In this document: positions 670-22,241 of the stretch, piece by piece | How positions within the stretch are numbered: position 1 is the stretch's first letter | How the letters are laid out: each line of letters opens with the position of its first letter | The notes under the pieces: model-generated | Database searches by the model: none | What the model was told of the DNA's origin: nothing | Seen by the model: only the letters and a program-made list of their open reading frames with translations | Position numbers and translations under genes: made by a program | Source: Candidatus Binatia bacterium | GTDB taxonomy: Bacteria; Desulfobacterota; Binatia; UBA9968 | Reading direction: 5' to 3' | Length of the DNA: 24,000 bases | Assembly (NCBI GenBank): GCA_036555515.1 | Contig: DATBLC010000195.1 | Span: 1-24,000 of the forward strand

Positions 670-681
670 TGGCACGATAAG

Positions 682-4030: not shown

Positions 4031-4108
4031 AATCACATCTCCTATCTATTTCGATTGTTAAGTGATTTTGCCTGTGGCTGAAACTGGCGTTTCTCTGAGC
4101 ATGATTTT

Positions 4109-4153
4109 CGTTCAAGCCGTTCAACCGCTTCGCTCCGTTAAAACCGTTGAAAT
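4109..4153. repeat. five tandem 9-bp units CGTTCAAGC/CGTTCAACC/GCTTCGCTC/CGTTAAAAC/CGTTGAAAT
   Basis: Read directly from the sequence. It lies between the stop of OCD paralog 2 (4197) and the start of the isochorismatase-family gene (4030). Same unit type and period as 682-708. Confidence 0.5.
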
Positions 4154-4196
4154 GGCGGTGAATGGGGCACGCCTCACACCTTACCTGCTTTTTCGG

Positions 4197-5264
4197 TCAC
4201 GGCGAATACAACTTATCTCCCCGTTGCGTCATGAATAGCTCCAGCGGCAGCTCCCGACCGATGTCTTTTTCTTTGGCTTTCTCGTACATCTTTCGCGCCG
4301 TCGCTGCGAACTGGATACCCATGCCCGTGTTGTTTTTGAAAAAGGTGATCTCTTTGTCGTCCTTGCGGCCACGGCACTTACCCGTAAGTAGCTCGCCAAG
4401 TTCGTGCAGGTTTTCGGCTTTCACGATGCCGCGTTCGAGTCGGTCGTGGAACTCGGCCTGCTTGTCGAGAAATATTTGTTGTTTGGAGCCGACGACGATG
4501 AGATTGGACTTCATCACGGCATCATCGTCGAGCTCTTTTCTTGGCAGAAAACCGTCGCCGCCGACAATGCTGTTCAAATGCATGCCCGCGTCGACCCATT
4601 TGCCTTGAATGACCGGGTCGACCGTGTTGGTGGCGGCAGTGACGATGTCGCTGCCGCGGATCGCTTCTTCGGCGCTTGATACAGGGATGATTTCCACGCC
4701 GGTCTCGGCGCTCATTTCCGCGGCGAAGCGTTCGCGATTCTCCTTCGTCGGGCTGTAAACTTTGATTTTGCTTAACGGCCTTACGGCAAGGTGCGCTGTA
4801 ACTTGTGTCTTGGCCTGTTCGCCAGAGCCCAGCAGGGCCATGACCTTCGCGTCCTTGCGCGCCAGATATTTGCTCGCCACCGCGCTGGTGGCACCGACAC
4901 GCATGGCGGAGATGTAATGATCATCCATCATGGCCAGGATTTCGCAAGTGTCCATGTCGAAGAGCAACACAAGGCCGATAAAGTCGCCGGGGTAGACGCG
5001 CCGCTTGCTGCCGGCCACTTGAACTTCCTTCGAAAAACTCGAGTCGATGCGCAGCGCCATCGACTTCATTCCCGGGACGAGTCCCATGATATTATTGAAA
5101 TAGTATTGGCCGCCTTCCTCCTTCCATGATGTCCGCAGACGCGCCCGTGGCGCAATCATTGCCTTGCCTTCGCCGAGCTCGCGAAAAGCTTGCTCTATGG
5201 CATCGACCTCTTCCGCCATCGGCAAAAGATTCTTCATCTCCTCGTTCTTGAGAACCATCACCAT
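4197..5264 (-). CDS. ornithine cyclodeaminase / mu-crystallin family NAD(P)-dependent enzyme (paralog 2)
   Basis: OCD-type N-terminus MVMVLKNEEMKNLLPMAEEVDAIEQAFRELGEG, ISAMRVGATSAVASKYLAR, Rossmann LLGSGEQAKTQ, and IVTAATNTVDPV. ATG 5264 is preceded by AAGGGAGAAAGCTTCT. The 33-codon in-frame upstream extension to 5363 has no RBS and no family precedent. Confidence 0.85.
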   Translation of the reverse strand: MVMVLKNEEMKNLLPMAEEVDAIEQAFRELGEGKAMIAPRARLRTSWKEEGGQYYFNNIMGLVPGMKSMALRIDSSFSKEVQVAGSKRRVYPGDFIGLVLLFDMDTCEILAMMDDHYISAMRVGATSAVASKYLARKDAKVMALLGSGEQAKTQVTAHLAVRPLSKIKVYSPTKENRERFAAEMSAETGVEIIPVSSAEEAIRGSDIVTAATNTVDPVIQGKWVDAGMHLNSIVGGDGFLPRKELDDDAVMKSNLIVVGSKQQIFLDKQAEFHDRLERGIVKAENLHELGELLTGKCRGRKDDKEITFFKNNTGMGIQFAATARKMYEKAKEKDIGRELPLELFMTQRGDKLYSP

Positions 5265-5448
5265 AGAAGCTTTCTCCCTTCCGAATCTCCGTACAACGAA
5301 GTCCGGCGCAGAGTCAAGGAAGGGAACCAGAAGCCAGGCATTGTCGAAGCGCAAGACGGGCAAGAATCGGCAAGCGAGGAAAGAGCAATGGGTTAATCAT
5401 GGTGCCGGTCAATGGACTGTTGAGCGGAGTTGCCGCGTCGATGGAAAA

Positions 5449-5481
5449 GAAAAGGGCTGAAGAAAGTCTCTTCAGCCCTTT
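5449..5481 (-). terminator. bidirectional rho-independent terminator downstream of the ferredoxin gene
   Basis: Perfect 10-bp stem GGGCTGAAGA (5453-5462) / TCTTCAGCCC (5468-5477) with a 5-nt loop. It is flanked by AAAA on one side and TTTT on the other, giving a U-tract on either strand. Confidence 0.65.
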
Positions 5482-5515
5482 TCGTGTGAGTAGGGGCAGG
5501 TCGAAAGTCGAGGAG

Positions 5516-5788
5516 TCAGCCTTTCTTCGCCTTGTACCAGTCAGCGTCTATCTGAATAAAATGCTTCCATTTGTCCGGCACCGCTGCCTCTTCAAAAATC
5601 GCCTCCACGGGGCAGACCGGCTCGCAGGCGCCGCAGTCGATGCACTCTTCGGGATCTATATAGAGCTTTTTTTCCTTTTCAAACTCCTCGGCCTCGTTTT
5701 TCGTCGGATGAATGCAATCAACCGGGCATACGTCAACACAAGCGGTGTCTTTTACGTCTATGCACGGCTCAGCAATAATATAAGTCAT
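5516..5788 (-). CDS. fdxA: 7Fe ferredoxin ([3Fe-4S][4Fe-4S], FdxA type)
   Basis: 90 aa, [27 protein letters not shown]...[16 protein letters not shown], with the classic Cx7Cx3CP plus CxxCxxCxxxCP spacing. Strong RBS GAGGAGGAG upstream of ATG 5788. The tracked ORF start at 5803 lies inside the RBS. Confidence 0.9.
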
Positions 5789-5803
5789 CTCGCTCCTCCT
5801 CAA

Positions 5804-5848
5804 AATTGACTTTTAGTGTAGTAGCAAATCGACTTTGGCAAGTCAATT
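5804..5848. promoter_or_regulatory. 9-bp perfect inverted repeat AATTGACTT ... AAGTCAATT in the fdxA/ybeY divergent region (candidate operator or promoter element)
   Basis: Arms at 5804-5812 and 5840-5848, with a third half-site AATTGAC at 5874-5880. On the minus strand the right arm contains TTGACT, a -35-like hexamer upstream of fdxA. No convincing -10 at canonical spacing. Confidence 0.3.
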
Positions 5849-6017
5849 AATCAGGAGGGCACAAAAGGATCTTAATTGACCGCTCAAACGGGCAGTGTTA
5901 AATAAGTCCGCCTGGGGCATCCCCACCCGGCAATTGTTTCGGAATTTTACAGAAATTTACTGACAACCGCGGAGCGCGGCTGTCGCAAGCGCAACGCCAA
6001 GACGTTACTATCTGACG

Positions 6018-6548
6018 ATGCCCGTCGAATTGGTCCGGCGCGGCGCGGGGAAGAACTGTCCCGCGCGGGCCGTTAAAAACACTGCGCTCGAAGTTCTCCG
6101 CCTGCTCAACCAGGATAAGGCGGAGCTGAGTCTGGCGTTAGTCGGCGATAGAGAGATTCGGAAACTCAACGCTAAGTACCGCAAAAAAGATTACGCCACC
6201 GACGTGCTGTCGTTTTCCACGGCAAAGAATTTGCCGGAACCGACTCGGCTGCTTGGGGATGTCGTGATCTCGGTCGATAAGGCGCGCGCGCAGGCAAAGG
6301 AGCGCGGTTGGACGCTAAAAGAAGAACTGACCACGCTGTTGATCCACGGCGTCGTGCATCTGCTGGGTTACGATCACGAGCGTTCCGCCAGTGATGCGCG
6401 CGCTATGGGACGGTTGGAGAGAAAGACTTACCGGCAGCTTTGTGAGCGGGGCTTTTTAAGGGTATACTATAAACCTAGACGGAATCCGGGCGCCGGAACT
6501 ACGAAGTCGGAAGCAGGAAGGCAAAATTCACGAGCCGGAAGAAAGTAA
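6018..6548 (+). CDS. ybeY: endoribonuclease YbeY (rRNA maturation factor)
   Basis: Zinc motif HGVVHLLGYDHE, plus DREIRKLNAKYRKKDYATDVLSF. Carries a roughly 35-aa basic C-terminal tail beyond the usual domain. Confidence 0.9.
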   Translation: MPVELVRRGAGKNCPARAVKNTALEVLRLLNQDKAELSLALVGDREIRKLNAKYRKKDYATDVLSFSTAKNLPEPTRLLGDVVISVDKARAQAKERGWTLKEELTTLLIHGVVHLLGYDHERSASDARAMGRLERKTYRQLCERGFLRVYYKPRRNPGAGTTKSEAGRQNSRAGRK

Positions 6549-6553
6549 ATTAG

Positions 6554-7658
6554 ATGTTGGACGAAACCCGCGAACAATTAACCCACCTAGAAGAGCGCGT
6601 CGAGCTTTTGCGGAGGCGGCTTTGACGTCGCAGGTAAGCAAAAGCGCGTCGAAGAGCTGAACCAGATCACGTCCAAGCCGGATTTCTGGAACGACAGCGA
6701 AAAAGCCCAGAGCATTCTTAGAGAGCAATCTTCCGTCAAAGGCGTTATCGACGCTTGGGAGAAACAACGCGCCGGCCTCGAAGAAGCGCGCTTCTTTCTC
6801 GAGATCGCCAAGGATGAAAAGAGCGAAGATGCGTTGAACGAGGCAGCGGCTAAAGTCGCCCAGGTGTCCCGCGAGATGGCGCAGACCGAGTTGGCACTGC
6901 TTCTAGGGGGGCCCGACGACCGGCGCAACGCCATCGTCACGCTGCACCCCGGCGCCGGCGGCACCGAAGCGCAGGACTGGGCTGAGATTCTTCTGCGCAT
7001 GTATTTGCGCTGGTGTGACCGACGCGGTTATCGAAAAGAGATTCTCGAATTCCAACCTGGCGAAGAAGCCGGCGTCAAGAGCGTGACTTTCACCGTCGAG
7101 GGCGACTACGCTTACGGCTATTTGAAAGCCGAAGCCGGCATCCATCGCCTCGTGCGCATCTCTCCCTTTGACGCCAATTCCAGGCGGCACACCTCTTTCG
7201 CCTCGGTGTTCGTCTATCCGGAAGTCGACGACGATATCAAAGTCGAGATTAACGAGGCCGATTTGCGCGTCGACACGTATCGGTCGAGCGGCGCCGGCGG
7301 GCAGCATGTCAATAAGACCGATTCCGCCGTGCGCTTGACCCATCTTCCCACCGGCATCGTCGTGGCCTGCCAAAACGAGCGCTCGCAGCATAAGAACCGC
7401 GCCATGGCGATGAAAATCTTGAAATCGCGTCTGTACGAGCTCGAGCTTGAAAAGCAAAAAGAAAAGATGGACGTTTTTCACAAGAGCAAAAAAGAGATTG
7501 CCTGGGGCAGCCAGATCCGTTCCTATGTGCTCCACCCCTACCGCTTAGTCAAGGATCACCGGACGAATATCGAGGTCGGCAACGCGGATGCCGTGCTCGA
7601 TGGTGATATTGATCAGTTTATCGAAGCTTATCTGATGGAGGCGGGCGAGCCGGCGTAA
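6554..7658 (+). CDS. prfB: peptide chain release factor 2, two frames joined by a programmed +1 frameshift (6554-6622 then 6624-7658)
   Basis: ATG 6554 opens a 23-codon ORF (MLDETREQLTHLEERVELLRRRL) ending at the in-frame TGA 6623-6625. The +1 frame continues as DVAGKQKRVEELNQITSKPDFWND... into tracked ORF 6834..7658, which contains the SPF tripeptide and GGQHVNKTDSAVR. Confidence 0.95.
6611..6626 (+). promoter_or_regulatory. RF2 autoregulatory +1 frameshift site (internal SD-like GGAGG, 3-nt spacer, CTT TGA C)
   Basis: The sequence CGGAGGCGGCTTTGAC matches the canonical prfB recoding architecture of E. coli (AGGGGGTATCTTTGAC), including the spacing. Confidence 0.9.
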
Positions 7659-7695
7659 CTCGTTTCCTGATCAAATCCATAAGTTTGCGACTTTG

Positions 7696-7734
7696 AATGG
7701 CAAGGGGTCGGGGAGAGGCTCACCCCTGACCATT
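7696..7734 (+). terminator. hairpin downstream of prfB (weak terminator or REP-like element)
   Basis: AATGG-CA-AGGGGT (7696-7708) pairs with ACCCCT-GA-CCATT (7722-7734): 5+6 bp around a 2x2 internal loop, with a 13-nt loop. Only TTT follows, so intrinsic termination is doubtful. Confidence 0.3.
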
Positions 7735-7886
7735 TGACCCTTACGGCCCCCGCTGAGCCGGAACTTTTCTGCGACGTGCACCGTTGTAAAAGCATCTAAG
7801 ATGAATTAGGGCCATGGTGCGCTTCAGGGCAACGTCAAAGTCAGTTTCACTTTACTGAATTGAATTTCCACCTGGCGTTTGTCCAA

Positions 7887-7958
7887 AAATCTCCCCTTCC
7901 CCCCTTTCAAAGTCTTTCAAAGGGGGGACTAAAAAGCTCCCTTTGTAAGGGGAGATTT
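7887..7958. repeat. nested palindromic REP/MITE-like element
   Basis: Outer perfect 12-bp inverted repeat AAATCTCCCCTT (7887-7898) / AAGGGGAGATTT (7947-7958). Inner perfect 9-bp inverted repeat CCCCCCTTT (7899-7907) / AAAGGGGGG (7919-7927). It creates the spurious in-frame N-terminal extension (..SPLPPFQSLSKGGLK..) of tracked ORF 7860..9287. Confidence 0.55.
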
Positions 7959-8078
7959 AGAGGGATTTTTAATCCGGTCAAAGCGACTTTGGCGCAACCC
8001 CTGGCGTGTGTCCGCTTTGGTCTTGCTTGCAGTTTGCGAAGGTGGTTTTCTGAAACGAAGACGTTAAAAGGAGGGTCC

Positions 8079-9287
8079 ATGGAGGGTCAGTCGCGAACGG
8101 ATGTCGACGGTGGCGCGAAAACCAACCGAAACAATATTGACCATGAACAGGCGGTTCTCGAGCGCTATGGCAACGCCGCCCAGCAGGTTGAGGCTTGTTT
8201 GTGTTTGCCCGTGAGCTACGACAAAGCGCTGCTGAAAGTCATCCCCGATGAAATAATTCAGAAAGATTACGGCTGCGGCGATCCGTCGTGCCATATCCGT
8301 GAGGGCGAGATAGTTCTCGACCTAGGTTCGGGCAGCGGCAAGGCCTGTTACATCATTTCCCAGATCGTCGGCGCCAAAGGCAAGGTGATCGGCGTCGACT
8401 TTAATCCGCCGATGCTGGAACTGGCGCGCAAATACCAGAAATCCATTGGCATGGCTCTCGGCTTTCACAACATCGATTTTCGCCGCGGCAAGATTCAAGA
8501 CCTCAGAACCGACCTGGAACTGGTCGATCAATATCTAAGCGAGAATCCCGTGCGCTCGGTGGCCGATCTAGCGCAGTTGGAAGAGTATCGAAACAGGATT
8601 TGCCAGGAGCGACCACTGATTGCCGACGAATCGGTCGACGTGATCGTTTCCAATTGTGTGCTCAATCTCGTGCGTCCCGAGAACAGGAAACAACTTTTCT
8701 TCGAAATGTACCGTGTGCTCAAACGGGGCGGGCGCGTGGCGATCTCGGATATCGTCAGTGACGAGCCGGTGCCGGAACATCTCGCAGAAAACTCCGATCT
8801 TTGGAGCGCCTGCGTGTCCGGCGCTTTTCAAGAAGAGGAGTTGCTGCGCGCTTTTGAGGAGGCGAAGTTTCACGGGATTCAGCTCGAAGATTTTCAGACG
8901 GTGCCCTATCAAACCGTCGATGGCATCGAGTTTCGCGCCGTCACGGTGACGGCTTACAAGGGTAAGGAAGGCCCCTGTATAGAGCGCAATCAGGCGGTGA
9001 TTTACCGCGGGCCGTGGAAGCAAGTGGTGGATGACGATGGTCACACGCTCGAGCGCGGTGCGCGTACGGCGGTCTGCGATAAGACTTTCAAGCTCTATTC
9101 ACATGCGCCTTATGCGGGCCAATTTATTGCCGTTCCGCCGCGCGAAGAGGTCGCGCTGGAAAAAGCCGGCGTCTTCGACTGCTCGCGCGATCATAAGCGG
9201 CATCCGCGCGAGACTAAAGGTATGGAATACAACGTTACCAGGATTGCGGCTGGTGTGTGCGGGCCGAATTCCAATTGTTGTCCGTAG
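8079..9287 (+). CDS. arsM: ArsM-like arsenite S-adenosylmethionine methyltransferase (402 aa, long form with Cys-rich C-terminal domain)
   Basis: RBS AAAGGAGGG (8067-8075) before ATG 8079. SAM-binding motif VLDLGSGSGK. ArsM/AS3MT hallmark cysteine contexts YGCGDP (C66), SNCVLNL (C193) and WSACVSGA (C245). Ends in GVCGPNSNCCP. Confidence 0.8.
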   Translation: MEGQSRTDVDGGAKTNRNNIDHEQAVLERYGNAAQQVEACLCLPVSYDKALLKVIPDEIIQKDYGCGDPSCHIREGEIVLDLGSGSGKACYIISQIVGAKGKVIGVDFNPPMLELARKYQKSIGMALGFHNIDFRRGKIQDLRTDLELVDQYLSENPVRSVADLAQLEEYRNRICQERPLIADESVDVIVSNCVLNLVRPENRKQLFFEMYRVLKRGGRVAISDIVSDEPVPEHLAENSDLWSACVSGAFQEEELLRAFEEAKFHGIQLEDFQTVPYQTVDGIEFRAVTVTAYKGKEGPCIERNQAVIYRGPWKQVVDDDGHTLERGARTAVCDKTFKLYSHAPYAGQFIAVPPREEVALEKAGVFDCSRDHKRHPRETKGMEYNVTRIAAGVCGPNSNCCP

Positions 9288-9566
9288 AAGCGATTATTAA
9301 GGAGTCCACAATTGAGTAACCAAACAGCGACCGAGGGGTGAGACCTGGAAAGCGCGGGCACAGGAGCGCAAAGGTTGTTTTCAGGCCCTGCCGGCGGGCA
9401 TTTTCCACCTATGGAGAGGACGGGGTGGTGGCCGGCCAAGGCAAAGAACCATTGACCGCGATCGGAAGGGCTCGCCTCTCGGTCGCACACTAGCGACATA
9501 GTCTCTAAATAACGACTCATTAGTAACAAGACGATCATGGACACCAAGCACGGTAAATATGACCTT

Positions 9567-9587
9567 CCTCTCCCTTGATGGGTGAGG
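9567..9587 (+). repeat. GC-rich imperfect hairpin (REP-like) about 20 nt upstream of the arsS start
   Basis: CCTCTCCC (9567-9574) / GGGTGAGG (9580-9587): an 8-position stem with one T-T mismatch and loop TTGAT. Followed by the purine-rich GAGGTGAGGG, which probably serves as the arsS RBS. Confidence 0.35.
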
Positions 9588-9609
9588 ATCGAGGTGAGGG
9601 TGATCTTCG

Positions 9610-10572
9610 ATGCAACCCTTCGCACAGAGACTTCATCTAAACGGCAACGGCCTTTGGCGCCGCGCCATTGACGTGCTGCAGGTCAATCTGGGCCGGTATT
9701 GCAACCTGGCGTGCATTCACTGCCATGTCGAATCCGGCCCGACGCGCAAAGAAATGATGAGCCGGGAGAACATCAAAGCGGTGCTGCGCTTTCTGGCGCG
9801 CACGGAAATTCCAACTCTCGATATCACCGGTGGGGCGCCGGAGTTGCATCCCGACTTCGACTACCTGGTTGAGTCGGCGCGGGAGTTTGGCCGCCATGTG
9901 ATGGACCGCTGTAATTTGACGGTGATCTTCGAGCCGGGAAAAGATTATCTGCCTGAGTTTTTTAAGCGCCAAAAGGTCGAACTGGTGTGTTCGTTGCCCT
10001 GCTATTCCGAAGAAAACGTCGATAGACAGCGGGGCAAAGGAACCTTTGATTTGAGCATCCGCGCGCTGCATATTTTCAATCAAATCGGCTACGGCCAGCC
10101 CGACTCGGATCTAGTGTTGAATCTGGTTTACAATCCCGTCGGGCCACATCTGCCGCCGCCGCAAGAAAAGCTCGAACAGGAGTACAAACGGATTCTCAGC
10201 GAGCAATTCGGCATCGTCTTTAATCGCCTCTACTGTTTGAGCAACATGCCGATCACGCGCTATGAAACCCATCTCAGGCTGCGCGGCGAATATGATCGGT
10301 ACATGGAACTACTCGCCGACAACTTTAATGCCGCCACCTTGGGTCAAGTAATGTGCCGCAATCTGATCAGCGTCGGTTGGGACGGTTTGATCTACGACTG
10401 CGACTTCAATCAGATGCTCGGGTTTTCCCTCCAGGATGCCCGCGGTGAGGCGCTTAATATCGCATCGCTGAACTCTTTGGATCAGCTTCTTGCCCGGTCC
10501 GTTACCGTCGGCGATCACTGCTACGCCTGCACGGCTGGTTCCGGCAGCAGTTGCGGCGGCGCGCTGGTCTAG
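9610..10572 (+). CDS. arsS: ArsS-type radical SAM / Cys-rich (DUF3641) protein, Cys form (TIGR04167-like)
   Basis: 320 aa. Radical-SAM cluster motif CNLACIHC (CX3CX2C) in LQVNLGRYCNLACIHCHVESGP. C-terminal Cys-rich domain ...GLIYDCDFNQMLG...GDHCYACTAGSGSSCGGALV. Confidence 0.85.
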   Translation: MQPFAQRLHLNGNGLWRRAIDVLQVNLGRYCNLACIHCHVESGPTRKEMMSRENIKAVLRFLARTEIPTLDITGGAPELHPDFDYLVESAREFGRHVMDRCNLTVIFEPGKDYLPEFFKRQKVELVCSLPCYSEENVDRQRGKGTFDLSIRALHIFNQIGYGQPDSDLVLNLVYNPVGPHLPPPQEKLEQEYKRILSEQFGIVFNRLYCLSNMPITRYETHLRLRGEYDRYMELLADNFNAATLGQVMCRNLISVGWDGLIYDCDFNQMLGFSLQDARGEALNIASLNSLDQLLARSVTVGDHCYACTAGSGSSCGGALV

Positions 10573-10588
10573 AATTACGAACCACCCC

Positions 10589-11719
10589 ATGAGTTTCTGG
10601 CCTGTCATTATTGCCGGTGCGACGCTTTTTGTCGCTTACGCCAACGGCGCTAATGATAACTTCAAAGGCGTCGCAACATTGTTCGGCAGCGGCACGACGG
10701 ATTACCGTAAAGCGCTCTGGTGGGCGACGGCGACGACCCTCGCCGGCTCGGTTGCGGCATTTTTCTGGGCGACCCAACTGGTCTCGATGTTTCAAGGCAA
10801 CGGCCTTCTGCCGGCGTTTCTGATTCAATCGCAACCGTTTATTGCCGCGGTGATCCTGGGTGCGGCGTTGACTGTGATCTCAGCAACCAAGATCGGCATC
10901 CCCATTTCGACCACTCATAGCTTGACGGGTGCGCTGTGCGGCGGCGGATTGGTTGCTGTGGGTTTTGAGATCGGTTTTCAAACGCTGATCGACTTTTTTT
11001 TTCTACCACTTCTAGTAAGTCCGCTCGTCGCGGTAAGCTTGGCGGCTGTGGGTTACCCATTATTAGATCGCGCGCTACGCTTTTCCAGTCTGACTAAAGA
11101 AAATTGCCTGTGCGTCGCGAGCGAAGCTGTTCTGACGGCAGCAACTCCCGGCGGAATTACAATCAGGGAGTCGACTCCGGGCCTGCGCGTGATCGTGGAG
11201 CGGCAGTCGGTCTGCGCGCAGCCGTTTTCCGGCGCTTTGTTCGGTATCAACGCTCAAAACCTGTTCGACATCGGCCACTTTCTCAGCGCGGGCGCCGTGA
11301 GCTTTGCCCGCGGACTTAACGACGCGCCGAAAATCGTCGCTATGGGTTTGGCCGTCGGCGCGCTGGATCTGCAGTGGTCCATCGGCTCTGTCGCAGTCGT
11401 AATGGCTCTTGGTGGATTGCTCAATGCGAGGAAAGTGGCGGAGACAGTGAGCAAGCGCATTACACCCATGGAGCCCGATCACGGATTCGTGGCAAATATC
11501 GTGACGAGCTTCCTGGTTATTTTTGCTTCGAGGTGGGGACTGCCCGTATCAACCACCCATGTATCTTGCGGGTCGCTTTTCGGCATCGGAATAGCGAATG
11601 GCCAGGCGAACTGGGGTGTCATCCGCACGATTCTGTTTGCCTGGATTTTGACCCTGCCCTTGGCTGCGGCCAGCGCGGGCCTGATTTACTCGATATTAAA
11701 CCGGGTTACCGCCGGTTAA
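10589..11719 (+). CDS. PiT (PHO4) family inorganic anion transporter, divergent signature
   Basis: ATG 10589 lies 16 nt after the arsS stop. 376 aa and polytopic. Two pseudo-symmetric halves with YANGANDNFKGVATLFGSG / PISTTHSLTGALCG and FARGLNDAPKIVAMG / PVSTTHVSCGSLFG. The tracked ORF start 10490 overlaps arsS and is rejected. Confidence 0.8.
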   Translation: MSFWPVIIAGATLFVAYANGANDNFKGVATLFGSGTTDYRKALWWATATTLAGSVAAFFWATQLVSMFQGNGLLPAFLIQSQPFIAAVILGAALTVISATKIGIPISTTHSLTGALCGGGLVAVGFEIGFQTLIDFFFLPLLVSPLVAVSLAAVGYPLLDRALRFSSLTKENCLCVASEAVLTAATPGGITIRESTPGLRVIVERQSVCAQPFSGALFGINAQNLFDIGHFLSAGAVSFARGLNDAPKIVAMGLAVGALDLQWSIGSVAVVMALGGLLNARKVAETVSKRITPMEPDHGFVANIVTSFLVIFASRWGLPVSTTHVSCGSLFGIGIANGQANWGVIRTILFAWILTLPLAAASAGLIYSILNRVTAG

Positions 11720-11729
11720 CCAAAGCACG

Positions 11730-13979
11730 ATGAAAACCGGCAAGATCTTGGTCCTTGCGGCATTGGCCATTGCGCTTGCGCTAGGGTTTCTCTTTTTGCC
11801 AATTCGCGAATGGTTCATGCGGTTTGAAAGCTATGTGCGGTCTTTGGGAGCCATCGGTCCGGTGGTCGTTGTACTGGCATACATTCTTTGTACCGTGCTG
11901 TTTATTCCTGGCAGCGCGATTACAATCGGCTCGGGAACGTTATTCGGATTGACGACCGGATTTATTGTCGTGGTACTAGGCGCCAACCTCGGCGCGCTCT
12001 GTGCTTTTGGTCTCGCGCGCAGCTTTCTCCGTGACAAGGTCGCGACCTGGGCAGCGGCCAATCCGAAGTTCCGCTCGCTCGATCAGGCGATCGGCCGTGA
12101 GGGCTTCAAGATGGTTCTGTTGACGCGGTTAAGCCCGGTCTTTCCGTTCGTGTTGCTGAATTATCTACTAGGTCTCACCGCGGTGCGCGTGGGCTCTTAT
12201 GTCTCGGCCAATTTGTTGGGCATGTTGCCGGCAACATTTTTGTTCGTCTACATCGGCGCGGCGGCGCGCGACGCCATTGCCGGCCAAACGGACGTCTCGG
12301 CGGGATTTTATCAACAAATCTTGAAATTCGTCGGGCTGGCGGCGACCGTCGCCGTCGTTGTGGTGGTGACGCGCATCGCGCGCAAAGCCTTGCGGGAGGC
12401 GGAGATTGAGCGCGAAGGGAGCACCGTGAAGCCGCGCCTCGATCCGAATCATAAGCCGGCGTCGTTTGACGAAATGATGCTCGTGGAGGACGACTACGAC
12501 AGGCAGTTGATCGAAAACTGCCACCCGCCGCATTGGGTCAATCCGACGCCGAATGGCAAATATAATCTCGTCGTCGTGGGCGCCGGGACCGCGGGGTTGG
12601 TGAGCGCTGCGGGCGCCGCCGGCCTGGGCGCCAAGGTCGCCTTGATAGAGCGCAATCTCATGGGCGGCGACTGCCTGAACGTGGGTTGCGTGCCGTCGAA
12701 AGGGATCATCCGCGCTGCGCGCGCAGCCCATGACGCGCGCAACGGAGCGGAATTCGGCGTGCGCCTTGAATGCCGGCCTGACGTGGCCTTCGCCAGCGCC
12801 ATGAGGCGCATGCGCCAAATTCGCGCGGGAATCAGCATTCACGATTCCGCGCAACGCTTCGCAAATTTGGGTATTGATGTATTCATCGGCCAGGGCTGCT
12901 TTGTCGGTCCCACGGCTGTGGCGGTTAACGGCAAGCGGCTCGAGTTCGACCGCGCCGTGATTGCCACCGGCGCGCGCGCCGCAGAGCTTTCAGTCCCGGG
13001 GTTGACAGGGGCGGGTTATCTGACCAATGAAAATGTCTTCACGCTTACCGAGCTTCCCCGCCGCCTCGCCGTGATTGGCGCCGGTCCCATCGGTTGCGAG
13101 CTTGCGCAGTGCTTTGCCCGTTTCGGGAGCGAAGTCTTTCTCATCGAGGCGCTGCACGGCGTCCTGCCCAACGAAGACCCCGACGCATCTGAAATCGTCC
13201 GCCGATCGTTGATGGACGGCGACGGCGTCAAACTCATGTGCTGCGGCAAGGACTTGAAGATCGGCAACGCAGACGGCGGCAAGCGATTGACCGTGGACTC
13301 GCATGACAATCACTACGACATCGTTGTCGATGAAATTCTCGTCGGCGGCGGGCGCCGGCCGAACCTGGAAGGTTTGGGATTGGACGAAGCCGGCGTTCAA
13401 TACAGCGCCCAGGGCGTGACCGTAGATGACCGTTTGCGCACGACGAACCCGCGAATTTTCGCCGCCGGCGATATCTGCTCGCGCTATAAATTTACCCATG
13501 CCGCCGATGCCATGGCGCGCATTGTAATCGCCAACGCGTTGTTCTTCGCTCGCCGCAAGGTGACCGATTTGGTCATCCCCTGGTGCACCTACACCGACCC
13601 GGAAGTCGCTCACGTGGGTTACTACGAAAAAGACGCCAAAGCAGCGGGTTTCGACGTGGCGACGATTACCGAGCACTTCGGCCACGTTGACCGCGCCGTC
13701 TTGGACGGCGAAGATGAGGGATATGCCCGAGTTCACTATGATAAGAAAACCGGCAAAATCCTGGGCGGTACCATCGTCGCGCGCCACGCGGGTGAGATGC
13801 TCGGTGAATTGACCTTGGCAATGGTGGCGAAACAGAGCGTTGGCGTTTTGTCGTCGACCATCCATTCTTACCCGACGCAGGCGGAGGTGATGCGTAAAAT
13901 CGGCGATACCTACATGCGCACCAAGCTCACGCCGGCGGTAAAAAAGCTTTTTGAAAAGTGGTTAGCGTGGCGGCGGTGA
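11730..13979 (+). CDS. fusion protein: N-terminal TVP38/TMEM64 (DedA superfamily) membrane domain plus C-terminal class-I FAD pyridine-nucleotide-disulfide oxidoreductase
   Basis: 749 aa. N-terminal third is hydrophobic with LFIPGSAITIGSGTLFGLTTG...GANLGALCAFGLARSFLRDKV. C-terminal part has YNLVVVGAGTAGL (FAD), GGDCLNVGCVPSK (redox CxxxxC), LAVIGAGPIGCELAQ (NAD(P)H) and HSYPTQAE (His-Glu dyad). Confidence 0.85.
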   Translation: MKTGKILVLAALAIALALGFLFLPIREWFMRFESYVRSLGAIGPVVVVLAYILCTVLFIPGSAITIGSGTLFGLTTGFIVVVLGANLGALCAFGLARSFLRDKVATWAAANPKFRSLDQAIGREGFKMVLLTRLSPVFPFVLLNYLLGLTAVRVGSYVSANLLGMLPATFLFVYIGAAARDAIAGQTDVSAGFYQQILKFVGLAATVAVVVVVTRIARKALREAEIEREGSTVKPRLDPNHKPASFDEMMLVEDDYDRQLIENCHPPHWVNPTPNGKYNLVVVGAGTAGLVSAAGAAGLGAKVALIERNLMGGDCLNVGCVPSKGIIRAARAAHDARNGAEFGVRLECRPDVAFASAMRRMRQIRAGISIHDSAQRFANLGIDVFIGQGCFVGPTAVAVNGKRLEFDRAVIATGARAAELSVPGLTGAGYLTNENVFTLTELPRRLAVIGAGPIGCELAQCFARFGSEVFLIEALHGVLPNEDPDASEIVRRSLMDGDGVKLMCCGKDLKIGNADGGKRLTVDSHDNHYDIVVDEILVGGGRRPNLEGLGLDEAGVQYSAQGVTVDDRLRTTNPRIFAAGDICSRYKFTHAADAMARIVIANALFFARRKVTDLVIPWCTYTDPEVAHVGYYEKDAKAAGFDVATITEHFGHVDRAVLDGEDEGYARVHYDKKTGKILGGTIVARHAGEMLGELTLAMVAKQSVGVLSSTIHSYPTQAEVMRKIGDTYMRTKLTPAVKKLFEKWLAWRR

Positions 13980-14002
13980 CCAAGTATCGTACGGAAGACA
14001 CT

Positions 14003-14030
14003 CCATTCGAACCTTCGGATGGCGAGTTTT
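14003..14030 (+). terminator. candidate intrinsic terminator or attenuator hairpin inside the cluster
   Basis: CCATTCGAA (14003-14011) / TTCGGATGG (14014-14022) gives 9 complementary positions including one G-U. The innermost pairs must open to form a loop. CGAG then TTTT (14027-14030) follows. Confidence 0.35.
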
Positions 14031-14040
14031 GAGTTAAGAG

Positions 14041-14907
14041 TTGAACTCGAAACCTGAAACCCGAAACCTGGAACTCCTGTGGCGTAACGCATTGAGCGTG
14101 GTTGCCGCACTTCTTTTGGCGGCCACCCCGTTATTCGCCGCCCCCAAGGCTGACCTCTGGCCGCGTTGGCAAAAGCACGACGCGTCGAGCAAGCAATCAA
14201 TCGATCACGGAGCTTGGGAGGCATTTCTCCGAAAGTATCTCGTCGCGCCTCATCCATCGGGGATCACCCGCGTCCGTTACGCGGCGGTCAGCCCGGAAGA
14301 TGGCGTTCGGTTGAAGAATTATCTCAAAACGCTGCAAGGGGCGCCGATATCCAACTACAATCGGGACGAACAGAAGGCTTACTGGATAAATCTCTACAAC
14401 GCGCTCACGGTGGACGTGATTCTTTTGCGCTTTCCGGTGGATTCGATTCGCGACATCAATATCTCGCCAGGTTTTTTCACCCGTGGGCCCTGGGGTGTGA
14501 AGCTTTTGACGATCGAAGGCGAGAAACTCTCGCTGGACGACATCGAGCACCGCATTCTGCGCCCGATTTGGCAAGACAACCGCGTTCACTACGCCGTCAA
14601 CTGCGCCAGCCTGGGCTGTCCGAACCTGCAATCGGTTCCTTACACCGACGAGAACACCGAATCACTGCTGGAAAAAGGCGCGCGGGAGTTCATTAATCAC
14701 CCGCGCGGCGTCGCCGTCACGAATGGCAAGCTCAAGGTGTCGAGCATCTATGTTTGGTTCCAAGAAGACTTCGGCGCCGGCACCGCCGGGCTCATCGAAC
14801 ATTGGCGAAAGTACGCGACTGCTACCCTCGCCGACAAGTTGAGGAATTATCGGGGCGGCCTCGATCATGAATACGATTGGCGGCTGAACGGCGCGGAGTC
14901 GAAATAA
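14041..14907 (+). CDS. secreted DUF547 domain protein
   Basis: 288 aa. Signal-peptide-like N-terminus (RNALSVVAALLLAATPLFAAPKA). DUF547 blocks YWINLYNALTVDVIL, LSLDDIEHRILRP and RVHYAVNCASLGCPNL. The start is uncertain (TTG 14041 versus CTG 14080 or GTG 14098), with no clear RBS for any of them. Confidence 0.75.
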   Translation: MNSKPETRNLELLWRNALSVVAALLLAATPLFAAPKADLWPRWQKHDASSKQSIDHGAWEAFLRKYLVAPHPSGITRVRYAAVSPEDGVRLKNYLKTLQGAPISNYNRDEQKAYWINLYNALTVDVILLRFPVDSIRDINISPGFFTRGPWGVKLLTIEGEKLSLDDIEHRILRPIWQDNRVHYAVNCASLGCPNLQSVPYTDENTESLLEKGAREFINHPRGVAVTNGKLKVSSIYVWFQEDFGAGTAGLIEHWRKYATATLADKLRNYRGGLDHEYDWRLNGAESK

Positions 14908-14916
14908 GGATCGCTC

Positions 14917-15594
14917 ATGCGGGTCTCCGTGGTCGTACCTGTCCTTAACGAAGAAAGGACCATCGCGCGGACGCTGGCAGCGCTTTTGCCCATGAAGCCC
15001 GATGAATTGTTCGTCGTGGATGGTGGCAGCAGCGATGGCACGTGGGAGACTTGCCGGAGTCTCGGCGTCGAAATCCTAACCGCCCCGCGCGGCCGGGCGG
15101 CGCAGATGAATTACGGCGCAGGACAGGCCACCGGCGATGTGTTGCTGTTCCTGCACGCCGACACTCGGCTGCCGCCGACCGCTTTTAGCGACATGCGGGA
15201 CGCGCTCGGCGATCCGCGCTGCGTGGGGGGGCGATTCGACGTTCAGCTGGACAGCGATCATTGGATGCTGCGAGTGATCGGCGCGATGATCAGCCTGCGC
15301 TCGCGGTTGAGCAAGGTCGGCACCGGCGACCAGGGAATTTTCGTCCGCCGCGAAGTGTTTCAAAGGATGGGCGGCTTCCCGGAGATTCCGCTCATGGAAG
15401 ACATCGCCTTCTGCCGCGCGCTCAAGCGCCTGGGCGCAGTGGCCTGTTTGAAAAGCAAAGTTATCACTTCGGCCCGGCGCTGGGAGTTGAACGGCGTATG
15501 GCGTTCGATCTTTAGAATGTGGACGCTCAAGTCGCTTTATTTACTCGGTGTGTCGCCACACCGGCTCAAACGGTTCTACGACGATGCGCGCTAA
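14917..15594 (+). CDS. family-2 glycosyltransferase-like protein (TIGR04283-like, 'transferase 2, rSAM/selenodomain-associated')
   Basis: 225 aa. VSVVVPVLNEERTI, FVVDGGSSDGT, GRAAQMNYGA, LLFLHADTRLP, GDQGIFVRREVF..GGFPEIPLMEDIAF, ITSARRWE. ATG lies 9 nt after the DUF547 stop, preceded by AAGGA. Confidence 0.85.
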   Translation: MRVSVVVPVLNEERTIARTLAALLPMKPDELFVVDGGSSDGTWETCRSLGVEILTAPRGRAAQMNYGAGQATGDVLLFLHADTRLPPTAFSDMRDALGDPRCVGGRFDVQLDSDHWMLRVIGAMISLRSRLSKVGTGDQGIFVRREVFQRMGGFPEIPLMEDIAFCRALKRLGAVACLKSKVITSARRWELNGVWRSIFRMWTLKSLYLLGVSPHRLKRFYDDAR

Positions 15595-16279
15595 CGCCCT
15601 GGCCGTCATGGCCAAAGCGCCGCTAGCCGGGCAAGTTAAGACCCGGTTAATGCCGGCCCTGAGCGCGGCGGAAGCCGCGGCTCTGGCGCGGGCTCTGCTG
15701 CTCGATCAACTGCGCCATCTCGCGGCGATAGCCGATGCAGATCTCTATCTCGCCTTCGCGCCGGCCACGGAGCGGGGATTATTTCAAGACATGGCTCCGC
15801 CCGGCTTTCGTTTGTTTCCGCAACAGGGCGCCGATCTCGGCGCACGGATGGCAAATGTCTTCGATACGCTACACGGCGTGGGCTACCGTAATATGGTTCT
15901 CATCGGCGGGGACCTTGCGCCGGTTCCTTTGGAGATTTTCGCCGAGGCGTTCGCTTTACTCGAAAATCGCCTTCAGCGCGTCGTCTTTGGACCAAGCCGC
16001 GATGGCGGCTATTATCTTGTCGGCTGCAATCATCCGCCGCCGCGCATTTTTGAGGGCATGAGCTGGAGCCATGGCGAAGTTTTAGCGCAGGCGCTGGCCG
16101 TGCTCGTCTCTCTGCAAATCGACGCGCACCTCCTGCCCATCTGGTTTGACATCGATACCGTGGATGATCTGCGCCATCTGCAATCCCTCTTGAACCCCGC
16201 GCTCGAAAAGACGCTGCCGAATACTTTGCCGCTGCTCCGGCGTTTGAATCCGGACAACAAAGCCGGTGGCGACCAATAA
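15584..16279 (+). CDS. DUF2064 / CofC-like nucleotidyl- or glycosyl-transferase-fold protein (TIGR04282-like, 'transferase 1, rSAM/selenodomain-associated')
   Basis: 231 aa from ATG 15584 (MRANALAVMAKAPLAGQVKTRL...), with GADLGARM, LIGGDLAPVP, GPSRDGGYYLVG, MSWSHGEVL and WFDIDTVDDL. It overlaps the upstream GT2 stop by 11 nt (ATGCGCGCTAA), implying translational coupling. Confidence 0.85.
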   Translation: MRANALAVMAKAPLAGQVKTRLMPALSAAEAAALARALLLDQLRHLAAIADADLYLAFAPATERGLFQDMAPPGFRLFPQQGADLGARMANVFDTLHGVGYRNMVLIGGDLAPVPLEIFAEAFALLENRLQRVVFGPSRDGGYYLVGCNHPPPRIFEGMSWSHGEVLAQALAVLVSLQIDAHLLPIWFDIDTVDDLRHLQSLLNPALEKTLPNTLPLLRRLNPDNKAGGDQ

Positions 16280-19008: not shown

Positions 19009-19482
19009 ATGCGAATCGTCATCGGCGCCGATCACGCGGGTTTCGAGCTGAAACAAAATCTCCGGGAGTATTTGCGTCACCTCGGCCACGAAGTCATAGA
19101 CGCGGGAACCGATAGCGCCGACGCCGTGGATTATCCAGATTGCGCCGAGGCGTTGAGCAAGGTGCTCTTGAACGGCGCCGCGGAGCGCGCTGTGTTTATC
19201 TGCGGCAGCGGCGTGGGCGCATCGGTATCGGCGAATAAAATCCCAGGCATTCGCGCCGGGCTTTGTCACGACACCTATGCCGCGCGCCAGGGGGTGGAGC
19301 ACGACGATATGAACGTTCTCGTGCTTGGCGCCCGTGTCATCGGCGTCGCGCTGGCGCACGAGTTGGTGAACAATTTCCTGGCGGCGGAATTCTGTGGCGA
19401 AGAGCGCCACCGCCGGCGCGTCGAAAAGATCAAAGCGTTGGAAAATCGTTACTGCAAACCGGCATTGGGGGAAACGGAATGA
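19009..19482 (+). CDS. rpiB: ribose-5-phosphate isomerase B
   Basis: 157 aa. [48 protein letters not shown]. Starts 3 nt after the tkt stop. Confidence 0.9.
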
Positions 19483-22241
19483 ATCCGCTGAGAGAACTTT
19501 TAGGACAGGGACAGTCCGTCTGGCTCGATTACATCCGGCGCAACTTGATCCGCAGCGGCGAGCTGAAACGGCTGGTCGAAGAGGACGGCATCCGCGGCGT
19601 CACCAGCAACCCAACGATATTCGAGAAAGCCATCGCCGGCAGCACGGACTACGACGAAGCCTTGGCCGCCCTGCTAGCGCGCGACCCCAAGGCCCCCATC
19701 GAGAAACTCTATGAGACGCTCGCCATTGAAGACATTCAGATGGCCGCCGATCTCTTAAGCCCCGTGTACCATGAGACTCAGGGCGCGGACGGTTTTGTGA
19801 GCCTGGAGGTGTCGCCCCATCTCGCCAACGACACTCAGAGCACCATAAGCGAAGCGAAACGCTTGAAGGCCGCTGTGAACCGGCCGAATTTGATGATCAA
19901 AGTCCCCGCCACCCCTGCCGGTATACCTGCCATTGAAGAACTCATCGCAGAGGGCATCAACGTTAACATTACCCTCATGTTCTCCATGAGGCACTACGAG
20001 GCGGTGACTCGCGCGTATATAAAAGGTTTGGAACGCTGCGCTGACCCGTCAAAGGTCGCGTCCGTGGCTTCATTTTTTGTCAGCCGGGTCGATACGATGG
20101 TGGATCGCGCGCTGGAAAGTGTAGGGACGCCGCAAGCCCTGAGCCTCCTGGGCAAGATCGCCATCGCCAACTCTAAGTTGGTCTACGACCGGTTCCGCGA
20201 GACCTTTCACGGCGAGGGTTTTGTTTCCCTACGGCAGCGTGGGGCCCGGGTGCAAAGACCGCTTTGGGCCAGCACTAGTACGAAGAATCCGAAATATTCC
20301 GACATTATGTACGTGGATAATCTCATCGGTCCCGAAACGGTCAATACGCTCCCGCCTGAAACGCTAAACGCGTTCAAGGATCATGGCAGAGTGATTGACA
20401 GCTCGGTCAGAGAAAATCTCGATGAGGCCGCGGCGGCGTTGGCTCGGCTGCAAGCGGTGGGAATCGATCTCAATATCATCGGCGAAAAGCTGCAGCAGGA
20501 TGGCGTCGCCGCTTTCGCCGCGTCCTTCGACGCGCTGCTTTCGGCGCTGGAGAATAAGCGCCAATCGATGGTCGGCACGGGACTAAACCGCCAGGAGCTG
20601 GACCTGGGAAAATATCACGGCCGGGTCCAGCGGCGCCTAAAAACTTGGCAGACGGCGGGGTTGGCCGGCCGGTTATGGCGAAAAGACTGGACGATCTGGT
20701 CGGCCGCGCCGCAACCCGAACTGTCGGACCGCCTCGGCTGGTTGGACTTGCCGGAAACGATGGCAAAACACGCTGCTGATCTGGCTGCCTTCGCGGGCAA
20801 AGCGAAGGCCGACGGTATTCGCCATGTCGTGCTTCTCGGCATGGGGGGATCGAGCCTCGCGCCCGAGGTCTTTCAGAAGACTTTCGGCAATGCGCCCGGT
20901 TATCCAGAGCTAGTGATGCTCGACAGCACACATCCCGGCGCAGTGAAAGGCGTGGAAGCGAGAATTGATCTAGCCAGGAGCTTATTTCTAGTTTCGAGCA
21001 AGTCGGGCACGACCACGGAGACCAATTCTTTCTTCTTCTACTTCTGGGACAAATTGAAACGGCTCAAGGATGAGCCCGGCCAACATTTCGTTGCCGTCAC
21101 CGATCCGGGCACGCCGCTGGAGAGGCTCGCAGCGGAAAGAAAATTCCGCGCCACTTTCAATGCGCCAGAAGAAGTCGGCGGCCGCTATTCCGCCCTTACC
21201 GTGTTTGGCTTGGTTCCGGCGGCGCTGATCGGCGTCGATATCGGCGCGCTGCTGGCGCGCACCCGTTGCATGAGTGATGGCTGTGGTGCTCTGGTGGAAG
21301 AGAGTCAAAATCCCGCGCTGGCGTTGGGCGCGGCGCTGGGAGAACTTGCGCTGGCGAAGCGCGACAAAGTAACGTTTCTGTGCTCGCCGTTGCTGAGCGC
21401 TTTTCCCGATTGGGTGGAGCAGCTGATCGCCGAAAGCACGGGCAAAGAAAAAAGGGGCATCGTGCCGGTAGCCAATGAAGGCGTGGGCGCGCCCGATAAG
21501 TATGGCGACGATCGTTTCTTTGTTTACTTGCGCTTGGAGGGCGACGAGAATCACGGCCTCGATCGCCAGGTGGCGGCGCTGCAGGCGAACAGCCACCCGG
21601 TGGTGCGCATTGATCTAAGTGACAAGCTCGACCTCGGCCAGGAGTTTTTCCGGTGGGAGTTCGCCGTCGCGGCCGCGGGCGCGGCCATCGGCATCCATCC
21701 ATTCAATCAGCCCGACGTTCAACTCGCCAAGGACTTGGCCAAGAAAGCAATGAGCGAGGGCGCGGGCGGCAAAAAAGCGAGCGCGATGCTGAGAGATGAA
21801 GTTACCGCTAGCGACGCGGGCCAATTGCGTCAAGCGGTCGCTTCATGGCTGGGCAAGAAAAAGGCGCGCGATTATGTCGCGGTTCAGGCCTACCTGATGC
21901 CCTCGCCCGAATACGCCGCAAAGTTACGGCATGTCGCAGCGATTATCCGCGACCGGCTCGGGGGGGCCACGACGATCGGTTTTGGCCCGCGCTTTCTCCA
22001 TTCAACCGGGCAGCTCCATAAAGGCGGGCCGAATTCTGTATTGGTATTACAGATCGTCGATCGGCCTGCCGACAATTTGGCCGTGCCAGAGACGAACTAC
22101 ACGTTCGACGCGTTAATTCAGGCCCAGGCGCTGGGCGATTTGGCGGCGCTCAGGCAACGGCGGCGGCGTGTGCTCAGAGTCAATCTCGGCGGCGAAATTT
22201 TGGCTGGATTGGATCTATTAGCGCAGGCTTTGCAAGCATAG
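19479..22241 (+). CDS. tal-pgi: bifunctional transaldolase / glucose-6-phosphate isomerase fusion
   Basis: 920 aa from ATG 19479, which overlaps the rpiB stop as ATGA. N-terminal transaldolase blocks [38 protein letters not shown]. The C-terminal PGI-like half has [22 protein letters not shown] and GGRYSALT. The tracked ORF start 19263 is an out-of-frame overlap with rpiB. Confidence 0.9.

Follow-up and report, generated by a model that had tools for sequence, protein, structure and literature searches.

Arsenosugars and arsenosugar lipids dominate the organic arsenic of seafood and seawater. To our knowledge, only the first two enzymes of arsenosugar synthesis, ArsM and ArsS, are known, and from a cyanobacterium only; this pathway of Synechocystis sp. 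PCC 6803 was reportedly described by Xue et al. in 2019 and Cheng et al. in 2021. According to PMC12159101, PMC13598754 and bioRxiv 2026.04.29.721666, ArsM methylates As(III), ArsS moves a 5'-deoxyadenosyl radical onto dimethylarsenite (DMAs(III)) to give DDMAA (5'-deoxy-5'-dimethylarsinoyl-adenosine), and adenine is thought to be removed afterwards so that the ribose can be derivatised. The ArsS reaction is biochemically established for the Synechocystis enzyme only (Cheng et al. 2021, cited by PMC12159101). Here we analysed a stretch of 24,000 nucleotides (nt) from Candidatus Binatia bacterium, which is uncultured and lives in soil or groundwater (assembly GCA_036555515.1, contig DATBLC010000195.1, positions 1 to 24,000), hereafter the window, which carries seven genes around an ArsM-like and an ArsS protein. 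On balance, we favour the view that these genes form a chromosomal, vertically inherited operon whose product, made from inorganic arsenic, is an organoarsenical of the arsenosugar type: a soluble riboside or else an arsenosugar lipid.

The Binatia gene array and its described counterparts

The seven open reading frames (ORFs) occupy positions 8079-16279 of the + strand and run in one direction. The first six are separated by spacers of 322, 16, 10, 61 and 9 nt, and the last two genes overlap by 11 nt:

8079-9287, + strand: ArsM-like class I S-adenosylmethionine (SAM) methyltransferase, 402 amino acids (aa), assigned by alignment with CmArsM and by its cysteines; below the ArsM cutoffs
9610-10572, + strand: ArsS, radical SAM with C-terminal DUF3641, 320 aa, assigned by TIGR04167 and Pfam
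10589-11719, + strand: PiT/PHO4-family anion permease, 376 aa, Pfam PHO4 203 bits
11730-13979, + strand: fusion of VTT (DedA/TVP38) and flavin adenine dinucleotide (FAD)/NAD(P)H disulfide reductase, 749 aa, Pfam and NF004991
about 11730-12410, + strand: VTT/DedA-TVP38 membrane domain, the N-terminal part of the fusion, Pfam VTT_dom
about 12480-13979, + strand: FAD/NAD(P)H disulfide reductase part of the fusion, Pfam Pyr_redox_2 and Pyr_redox_dim
14041-14907, + strand: DUF547 protein with a signal-peptide-like N-terminus, 288 aa, Pfam DUF547 90 bits
14917-15594, + strand: family 2 glycosyltransferase (GT2) of TIGR04283, 225 aa, 273.7 bits against a cutoff of 182
15584-16279, + strand: DUF2064/TIGR04282 CofC-like putative nucleotidyltransferase, 231 aa, 182.3 bits against a cutoff of 134

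The genes, spacers, families and the placement between prfB and tkt, all claimed in the original prediction, were borne out by ORF calls and family searches. Independent JGI gene calls on the near-identical metagenome contig L092 gave equal product lengths (402/320/376/749/288/225/231 aa). The Shine-Dalgarno-like sequences AAAGGAGGG and GAGGTGAGGG precede arsM and arsS, respectively. A promoter and terminator scan gave nothing above the shuffled-sequence expectation and was not used, so we judge operon status only from spacing and conservation of the array. Both indicate that the seven genes are a real operon, and co-transcription is probable from the spacing. As also predicted, this is not a classical ars operon: arsR, arsC, arsB or acr3 domains were found in none of the sizeable ORFs of the window.

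The second gene encodes a bona fide member of TIGR04167. It scored 439.3 bits against the equivalog cutoff of 300, over profile positions 4-303 of 303, which agrees with the ArsS identity proposed earlier. Pfam recognises Radical_SAM and DUF3641 (181 bits). The CX3CX2C cysteines (C31/C35/C38) and three C-terminal ones (C304/C307/C315) are invariant in 86 homologues, and this is a Cys-type, not a Sec-type, protein. Adenosylation of DMAs(III) by this protein is a prediction from family membership. The Synechocystis system shares with the window an ArsM-family gene next to TIGR04167 ArsS, the CX3CX2C motif and the Cys-rich C-terminal DUF3641, and in both the first two steps should yield DDMAA. 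However, the window ArsM is not of the cyanobacterial AsSugarArsM type, the host is a non-phototrophic Binatia and five extra genes are joined in one operon.

The ArsM-like protein has its best NCBIfam match in NF040538, the arsinothricin-type ArsM (356 bits, cutoff 500). It scored 187 bits with PRK11873 (cutoff 263) and 120 bits with AsSugarArsM NF038099 (cutoff 400). CmArsM structures align with it, and the cysteines of YGC66G, SNC193VLNL and SAC245VSGA are kept, so that counterparts of CmArsM Cys72, Cys174 and Cys224, which bind As(III), are present together with an N-terminal Cys. Within the clade of this protein C42, C66, C193 and C245 are invariant. The ArsM assignment made earlier thus stood as far as the catalytic cysteines are concerned and failed at every curated cutoff. 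PGAP names the protein only 'methyltransferase domain-containing protein'. Its clade is distinct from both cyanobacterial AsSugarArsM and classical ArsM, and is captured by no curated model.

The arsinothricin genes arsQML of Burkholderia gladioli likewise combine an ArsM and a C-As bond-forming radical SAM enzyme, and the window ArsM scores best on the arsinothricin model, yet below its cutoff. The radical SAM enzyme of arsQML is the non-canonical ArsL, which transfers a 3-amino-3-carboxypropyl group, whereas the window has ArsS, an adenosyl-transferring enzyme. We rejected an arsinothricin cluster: ArsS is the sole radical SAM gene of the window, there is neither ArsL nor ArsQ, and the only permease is PiT.

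The PiT protein is far below the equivalog cutoffs of PitA (NF033774, 48 against 800 bits) and CysP (NF053884, 68 against 400 bits). Identity as PitA phosphate or CysP sulfate permease was rejected accordingly, only the general PHO4 family being reached. The closest structure is TmPiT (6l85), and the protein belongs to an uncharacterised subfamily.

The VTT-reductase fusion, in which the reductase is of the class I pyridine-nucleotide disulfide type, passes NF004991 with 760 against 620 bits. Since the reductase part comes after the last membrane helix, it is probably cytoplasmic. Its redox motif CLNVGC and a His/Glu pair are invariant, and its best PDB match is MerA (5x1y). The fold, the FAD/NAD(P)H domains and the CxxxxC motif are common to MerA and to the glutathione and lipoamide disulfide reductases (GR and LipDH). 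In contrast to MerA, the window reductase lacks the NmerA domain and the C-terminal Cys-Cys (its C-terminus, ...KLFEKWLAWRR, contains no cysteine), has a DedA domain added at the N-terminus, and carries a His/Glu dyad, like GR and LipDH, where MerA has Tyr. A MerA reading was rejected, with TIGR02053 at 357.8 against 454.45 bits and the C-terminal Cys pair missing.

A reductase of this kind is also found in the Pseudanabaena galeata plasmid cluster (L087, 265-9969), which consists of ArsR, TVP38, a 'mercuric reductase', AsSugarArsM, a second TVP38 and ArsS. TVP38 and the MerA-like reductase are shared with the window, the two reductases being 55% identical, whereas GT2, DUF2064, DUF547 and PiT are missing from L087. 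That the reductase is tightly linked to ArsM and ArsS in a cyanobacterium as well speaks for its acting at an early step. A phosphate-binding protein also lies near the L087 cluster.

The DUF547 protein carries a conserved N-C-A-S-x-G-C-P motif. C193-P194, E169-H170 and R174 are invariant, C188, five residues upstream, is present in 14/17 homologues, and the AlphaFold2 model has a pLDDT of 70. The closest solved relatives of the GT2 protein are DPM synthase (5mlz), GpgS (7p5l) and ArnC (9hwj); its conserved residues are D35, D40, H80-x-D82, G137-D138-Q139 and E161-D162. The DUF2064 protein scored 40 bits with the CofC model and matches PDB 3cgx, a 'putative nucleotide-diphospho-sugar transferase', with an E-value of 9.5e-25, which gives it a GT-A/NTP-transferase-like fold. 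Conserved in it are K19-T-R-L, D110, D140-G-G and D189-x-D191.

NCBI names TIGR04283 and TIGR04282 alike, 'arsenosugar biosynthesis glycosyltransferase'. Both models were defined from association with ArsS, and the names come from gene context alone. Our literature search found nothing experimental on TIGR04282, TIGR04283, DUF547, DUF2064 or enzymes acting after DDMAA, and no experimental work on any of the five partner families. The rSAM/selenodomain-associated neighbourhood, in which these models occur together, is also present in Burkholderia, Acinetobacter, Hymenobacter and many metagenome-assembled genomes (MAGs), and TIGR04167, TIGR04282 and TIGR04283 are all above cutoff in the window. 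To this neighbourhood the window operon adds ArsM, PiT, the VTT-reductase fusion and DUF547 in a tight chromosomal seven-gene array. Unlike the proteobacterial versions, it has no methylthioadenosine phosphorylase (MTAP), no extracytoplasmic function (ECF) sigma/anti-sigma pair and no CcdA/thioredoxin.

Conservation in relatives, across phyla and on plasmids

The close relatives L081, L082-84, L091 and L092 (78-99% ArsS identity) keep the same array between prfB and tkt-rpiB-tal/pgi. PiT is missing from the array of L081, and L082-84 have extra redox and ECF-sigma genes inserted between prfB and arsM. GC content is even across the window with no break, and its sizeable ORFs were found to contain neither a transposase nor an integrase domain. 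The earlier statement that there is no mobile-element signature agrees with this, and a mobile island was rejected on the kept synteny, the even GC and the lack of mobility genes.

The prfB-arsM region of L082-L084 (about 360-7700, 78% ArsS identity) holds ORFs which are split in some gene calls, namely AhpC/TSA (103+79 aa), DUF3179 (215+100 aa) and a T4-deiodinase-like ORF. These look like selenoproteins with an in-frame UGA. MerF, a thioredoxin-like protein and an ECF sigma/zf-HC2 pair are found in the same region.

An ArsS profile scan of one genome per GTDB species yielded 80 loci spanning Proteobacteria, Acidobacteriota, Verrucomicrobiota, Planctomycetota, Nitrospirota, Bacteroidota and others. 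Partner hidden Markov models, built from the window proteins and their first matches, were searched on six-frame ORFs of these loci. Among the 34 species-representative loci with at least 7 kb on each side of ArsS (the full-flank set), GT2 was present in 19, DUF2064 and the FAD reductase in 17 each, VTT in 16 and DUF547 in 8. Any ArsM was found in 14 (the window's clade in 5, another ArsM-family gene in 9). PiT occurred near ArsS in 1/34 full-flank loci and in 5/80 of all loci, from five different phyla. Over the 80 loci, the partners were mostly close to ArsS and on its strand (GT2 35/39, DUF2064 30/32, reductase 24/25, ArsM 24/26). Co-localisation with ArsS, whose absence the original prediction had named as grounds for giving up the cluster, is thus conserved across phyla.

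In an all-vs-all clustering of the neighbour ORFs, most groups were antisense shadows of other genes. Genuine additional families comprised DUF3047, DUF3179, ECF sigma factors and a protein of about 340 aa that has no name. The latter lies between ArsS and the VTT-reductase in 8/80 species loci, mostly betaproteobacterial MAGs, and also on Burkholderia plasmids (L040 10749-11954, L052 11988-13328, L058 12021-13349, L085 9951-10970 and others). It matched nothing in Pfam or NCBIfam; its GD/GNHE-like motifs are reminiscent of metallophosphoesterases.

The methyltransferases beside ArsS bear on the element that is handled. AsSugarArsM above its cutoff adjoins ArsS in L017, L047 and L032, a generic ArsM in L049, L070 and L074, and the window's clade in L042 and L055. 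The methyltransferases outside the window's clade are true ArsM relatives of different clades. Independent recruitment of at least three ArsM clades beside ArsS is our strongest argument for arsenic rather than selenium.

We judge it very unlikely that the true target is a different element or substrate (selenium, antimony, tellurium or a non-metalloid) and that the arsenic label was mis-transferred from Synechocystis. Reductases of the MerA/GR-like class can reduce selenite or tellurite, the PiT protein is weakly similar to the CysP sulfate permease, and the probable selenoprotein genes of L082-84 adjoin the cluster. Selenoprotein forms also exist among ArsS family members (PMC13188914). However, the three independent ArsM clades that pair with ArsS all retain the cysteines that bind As(III), ArsS identity stays at 47-55% between phyla, cyanobacteria among them, ArsR lies beside the cyanobacterial cluster, and no SelD/SenABC-type gene is present in the window. 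For the organo-selenium product that had been offered as an alternative, we found nothing in support.

Among the 72,556 plasmids searched, ArsS was found on 54 and a TIGR04283-type GT2 on 52, and the organism tallies and the accessions listed indicate that the GT2 plasmids fall within the ArsS plasmids. The set is redundant in phylogenetic terms, with 49 plasmids from Burkholderia. One of the plasmids, pJNE5-X3_NDM-1 of Acinetobacter portensis (L089, 8956-17247), holds all seven window families and mtnP. The gene order is different and identities are 24-54%. In addition to mtnP, which encodes MTAP, this cluster has N1pC/P60, CcdA/thioredoxin and a sigma factor. Since the plasmid is mobilisable, the module is horizontally mobile in some lineages. 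pJNE5-X3_NDM-1 is an NDM-1 resistance plasmid.

On plasmids of Burkholderia glumae and B. thailandensis, S-methyl-5'-thioadenosine phosphorylase is encoded directly beside TIGR04283 and TIGR04282. These clusters further comprise ArsS, DUF547, an FAD oxidoreductase and an MFS transporter, together with CcdA/thioredoxin and an ECF sigma/anti-sigma pair. MTAP homologues also adjoin ArsS in L019, L026, L027 and L051:

L085 2117-2998: MTAP gene in the ArsS/TIGR04283/TIGR04282 cluster of a Burkholderia glumae plasmid
L019 9039-9950: MTAP gene in an ArsS-type cluster
L026 7731-8621: MTAP gene in an ArsS-type cluster
L051 8909-9802: MTAP gene in an ArsS-type cluster
L027 3008-3850: MTAP gene in an ArsS-type cluster
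L089 16384-17247: MTAP gene in the Acinetobacter portensis plasmid cluster

The gene recurs in such ArsS/TIGR04283/TIGR04282 clusters of unrelated bacteria, and its product is a candidate DDMAA phosphorylase.

The same comparisons bear on whether the partner genes belong to the arsenic chemistry at all. ArsM and ArsS alone might act on arsenic, in detoxification or volatilisation, with the VTT-reductase, DUF547, GT2 and DUF2064 forming an independent envelope or redox module nearby. In the Binatia-like locus L090 (6631-10919) the VTT-reductase, DUF547 and GT2 lie upstream of tkt, and neither ArsM nor ArsS is found within 9 kb of them. Several genes of this contig are frameshifted and its assembly quality may be poor. 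The module also stands beside tkt in all Binatia-like relatives, whereas the upstream part varies (L081 without PiT, L082-84 with extra genes), and the cyanobacterial and Thiodictyon plasmids carry ArsS without GT2. On the other side, GT2 and DUF2064 neighbour ArsS in about half of the loci, over many phyla and with the strand bias given above, GT2 was never seen on a plasmid without ArsS, and it was this very association from which the TIGRFAM/NCBIfam models were drawn up. We consider an independent module improbable.

A proposed pathway from inorganic arsenic to an arsenosugar

The order of events that we propose has a parallel in hopanoid synthesis. There, a radical SAM enzyme, HpnH, adds 5'-deoxyadenosyl, the PNP-type enzyme HpnG removes adenine (adenosylhopane to ribosylhopane), and the ribosyl derivative is elaborated. 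The same logic would apply here; ArsS is weakly like HpnH and GT2 weakly like HpnB (E about 1e-4). The substrate would be arsenic and not a triterpene, and hopanoid genes are not present.

In the proposed operon pathway, ArsM and ArsS would deliver DDMAA. An MTAP-type enzyme, unlinked in this genome, would then remove adenine and leave 5-deoxy-5-dimethylarsinoyl-ribose-1-phosphate; because DDMAA is a structural analogue of methylthioadenosine, the MTAP of the related clusters plausibly phosphorolyses it. The DUF2064 protein could turn dimethylarsinoyl-ribose-1-phosphate into a nucleoside diphosphate sugar, a role proposed on account of its CofC-like character and the 3cgx fold match. GT2, given its kinship with DPM synthase, ArnC and glucosyl-3-phosphoglycerate synthase, would attach the arsenoribosyl moiety to an acceptor of glycerol, phosphoglycerol or lipid type. 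Such acceptors are in keeping with the aglycones known from arsenosugars and with arsenosugar phospholipids. The earlier idea of activation by a CofC-like protein and transfer by GT2 gains support, at the level of gene content, from the recurrence of MTAP in related clusters.

The remaining partners would act around this core. The membrane-anchored FAD disulfide reductase likely gives NAD(P)H electrons to recycle ArsM disulfides or to keep arsenic trivalent. With low confidence, we suggest that the product, or an intermediate linked to a lipid, is handled in the membrane and periplasm by the DedA-type domain and by exported DUF547, which has a Cys pair. Equally speculative is the lineage-variable PiT permease, which might take up arsenate or phosphate. 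The full sequence of MTAP, DUF2064 and GT2, together with the DedA-linked reductase and DUF547, may represent the long-missing late steps of arsenosugar or arsenosugar-phospholipid synthesis, running via a nucleotide-activated 5-deoxy-5-dimethylarsinoyl-ribose not known before and making widespread heterotrophs primary producers. We put this forward tentatively.

The product may also be a membrane arsenolipid instead of a soluble arsenosugar. GT2 would then load a lipid or phosphatidylglycerol head group with the arsenoribosyl group, DedA would flip the lipid to the other membrane face and periplasmic DUF547 would process it, and the result would be a phosphate-sparing or envelope-modifying lipid. 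DedA/VTT proteins were recently reported as lipid and undecaprenyl-phosphate flippases. The nearest solved GT2 relatives (DPM synthase, ArnC and GpgS), the exported look of DUF547 and a phosphate-type permease within the operon point the same way. Arsenosugar phospholipids of seawater, with acyl-ether glycerols, have moreover been attributed to a suspected bacterial source (bioRxiv 2021.03.22.436501). However, GT2 has just 225 aa and no obvious transmembrane segment, its acceptor is only putative, and the VTT domain is separate from, or absent beside, the reductase in L009, L037 and L055. We regard a membrane arsenolipid in place of a soluble arsenosugar as unlikely.

Several observations weigh against the arsenosugar operon as we read it. 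Every step after ArsS is inferred by us, and we know of no product from any non-phototrophic carrier. The operon has no recognised exporter and no adenine-removing enzyme. The ArsM-like protein reaches none of the curated ArsM cutoffs (PRK11873, NF038099 and NF040538), its clade occurs in only 5/34 full-flank loci, and in 20/34 of these no ArsM lies within 8 kb of ArsS. GT2 bears H-x-D in place of the D-x-D of many GT2 enzymes. Fold and profile searches with DUF547 matched nothing in the PDB. The locus L090, as described, carries part of the module apart from ArsM and ArsS. Finally, Pseudanabaena and Ca. Thiodictyon, the sources of the two ArsS plasmids without GT2, are phototrophs; canonical arsenosugar synthesis may thus do without GT2 and DUF2064. 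The claim of a 'complete' system with export is accordingly unproven: apart from the missing exporter and adenine-removing enzyme, PiT is absent in L081.

Sequence context and significance of the locus

Upstream of the operon lie two OCD-family genes, an M24 peptidase, isochorismatase, ferredoxin, ybeY and prfB; tkt, rpiB, a tal-pgi fusion, gnd and zwf follow downstream and form a compact pentose-phosphate cluster directly 3' of the seven-gene array. The tal-pgi gene at 19263-22241 encodes transaldolase fused to glucose-6-phosphate isomerase. Its listed TTG start is probably too far upstream, as the calls in relatives give 918-920 aa. In prfB (about 6548-7658), CTTTGAC is found at 6620-6626, upstream of the long RF2 frame listed at 6834-7658. 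It is prfB's classical programmed +1 frameshift site, and the gene is accordingly split over two frames. The 420-nt prfB-arsM region contains a C/T-rich palindromic stretch (7880-7960) with a hairpin at 7937-7954, which could be a terminator for prfB on an opposite-strand reading, or a repeat element.

One non-coding feature lies inside the array:

9288-9609: arsM-arsS spacer, 322 nt; it carries an insertion of about 250 nt and, just 5' of arsS, a dispersed repeat of 42 nt (9561-9602)

The insertion is lineage-specific, the spacers of relatives being 0-90 nt, and it holds no convincing ORF and no Rfam match. The 42-nt repeat has copies at 1996-2037 and 9561-9602, 83% complementary, each directly 5' of a start codon: that of an OCD-family gene (988-2004, minus strand) and that of arsS (plus strand). 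It looks like a dispersed element of the 5' untranslated region or ribosome-binding site, or a promoter element, to judge by its position. No Rfam family matched in the window at the gathering threshold, and at E<=1 there was no match in the 322-nt gap or in the region upstream of arsM. A riboswitch or other RNA at these two places was rejected on that basis.

Part of this locus has been labelled before. The five proteins that we looked up (ArsM-like, PiT, reductase fusion, GT2 and DUF2064) belong to the GenBank run HEY7556513-HEY7556519 of a 'Candidatus Binatia bacterium' MAG, and PGAP already names the last two genes of the array 'arsenosugar biosynthesis glycosyltransferase'. The same label occurs in annotations of Burkholderia, Acinetobacter and Hymenobacter, and also in the published genome paper on the non-phototroph Aromatoleum (PMC8801600). 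The original prediction of 'new biology' in a non-phototroph was thus overstated, since the proteins are in GenBank with arsenosugar labels and other non-phototrophs have them too. The locus is a further example of an ArsS neighbourhood known from annotation, with late-step chemistry that we infer. What sets it apart is that seven genes form a tight array on a chromosome, that its ArsM clade falls outside the curated models, and that PiT is included.

The value of the cluster lies in candidate genes and in cultivable test organisms; the window adds a chromosomal Binatia example and not a new kind of system. There are candidates for the removal of adenine, for activation, for glycosyl transfer, for redox support and for handling at the membrane. 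Among the carriers of the cluster are cultivable, genetically tractable non-phototrophs, such as Burkholderia glumae, B. thailandensis and Acinetobacter portensis. Strains in culture include Acinetobacter portensis JNE5, Burkholderia glumae BGR1 (plasmid bglu_2p), B. thailandensis 2002721643, Microbulbifer rhizosphaerae CECT 8799, Caldimonas manganoxidans ATCC BAA-369 and Methylotetracoccus oryzae C50C1. Such carriers make it testable whether arsenosugars come from heterotrophs and which enzymes finish the pathway. The arsenosugar phospholipids of suspected bacterial origin (bioRxiv 2021.03.22.436501) make the question timely. If the proposed pathway is true, Binatia, Burkholderia, Acinetobacter and many Gamma- and Betaproteobacteria would be primary producers of arsenosugars in soils and waters, beside algae and cyanobacteria.

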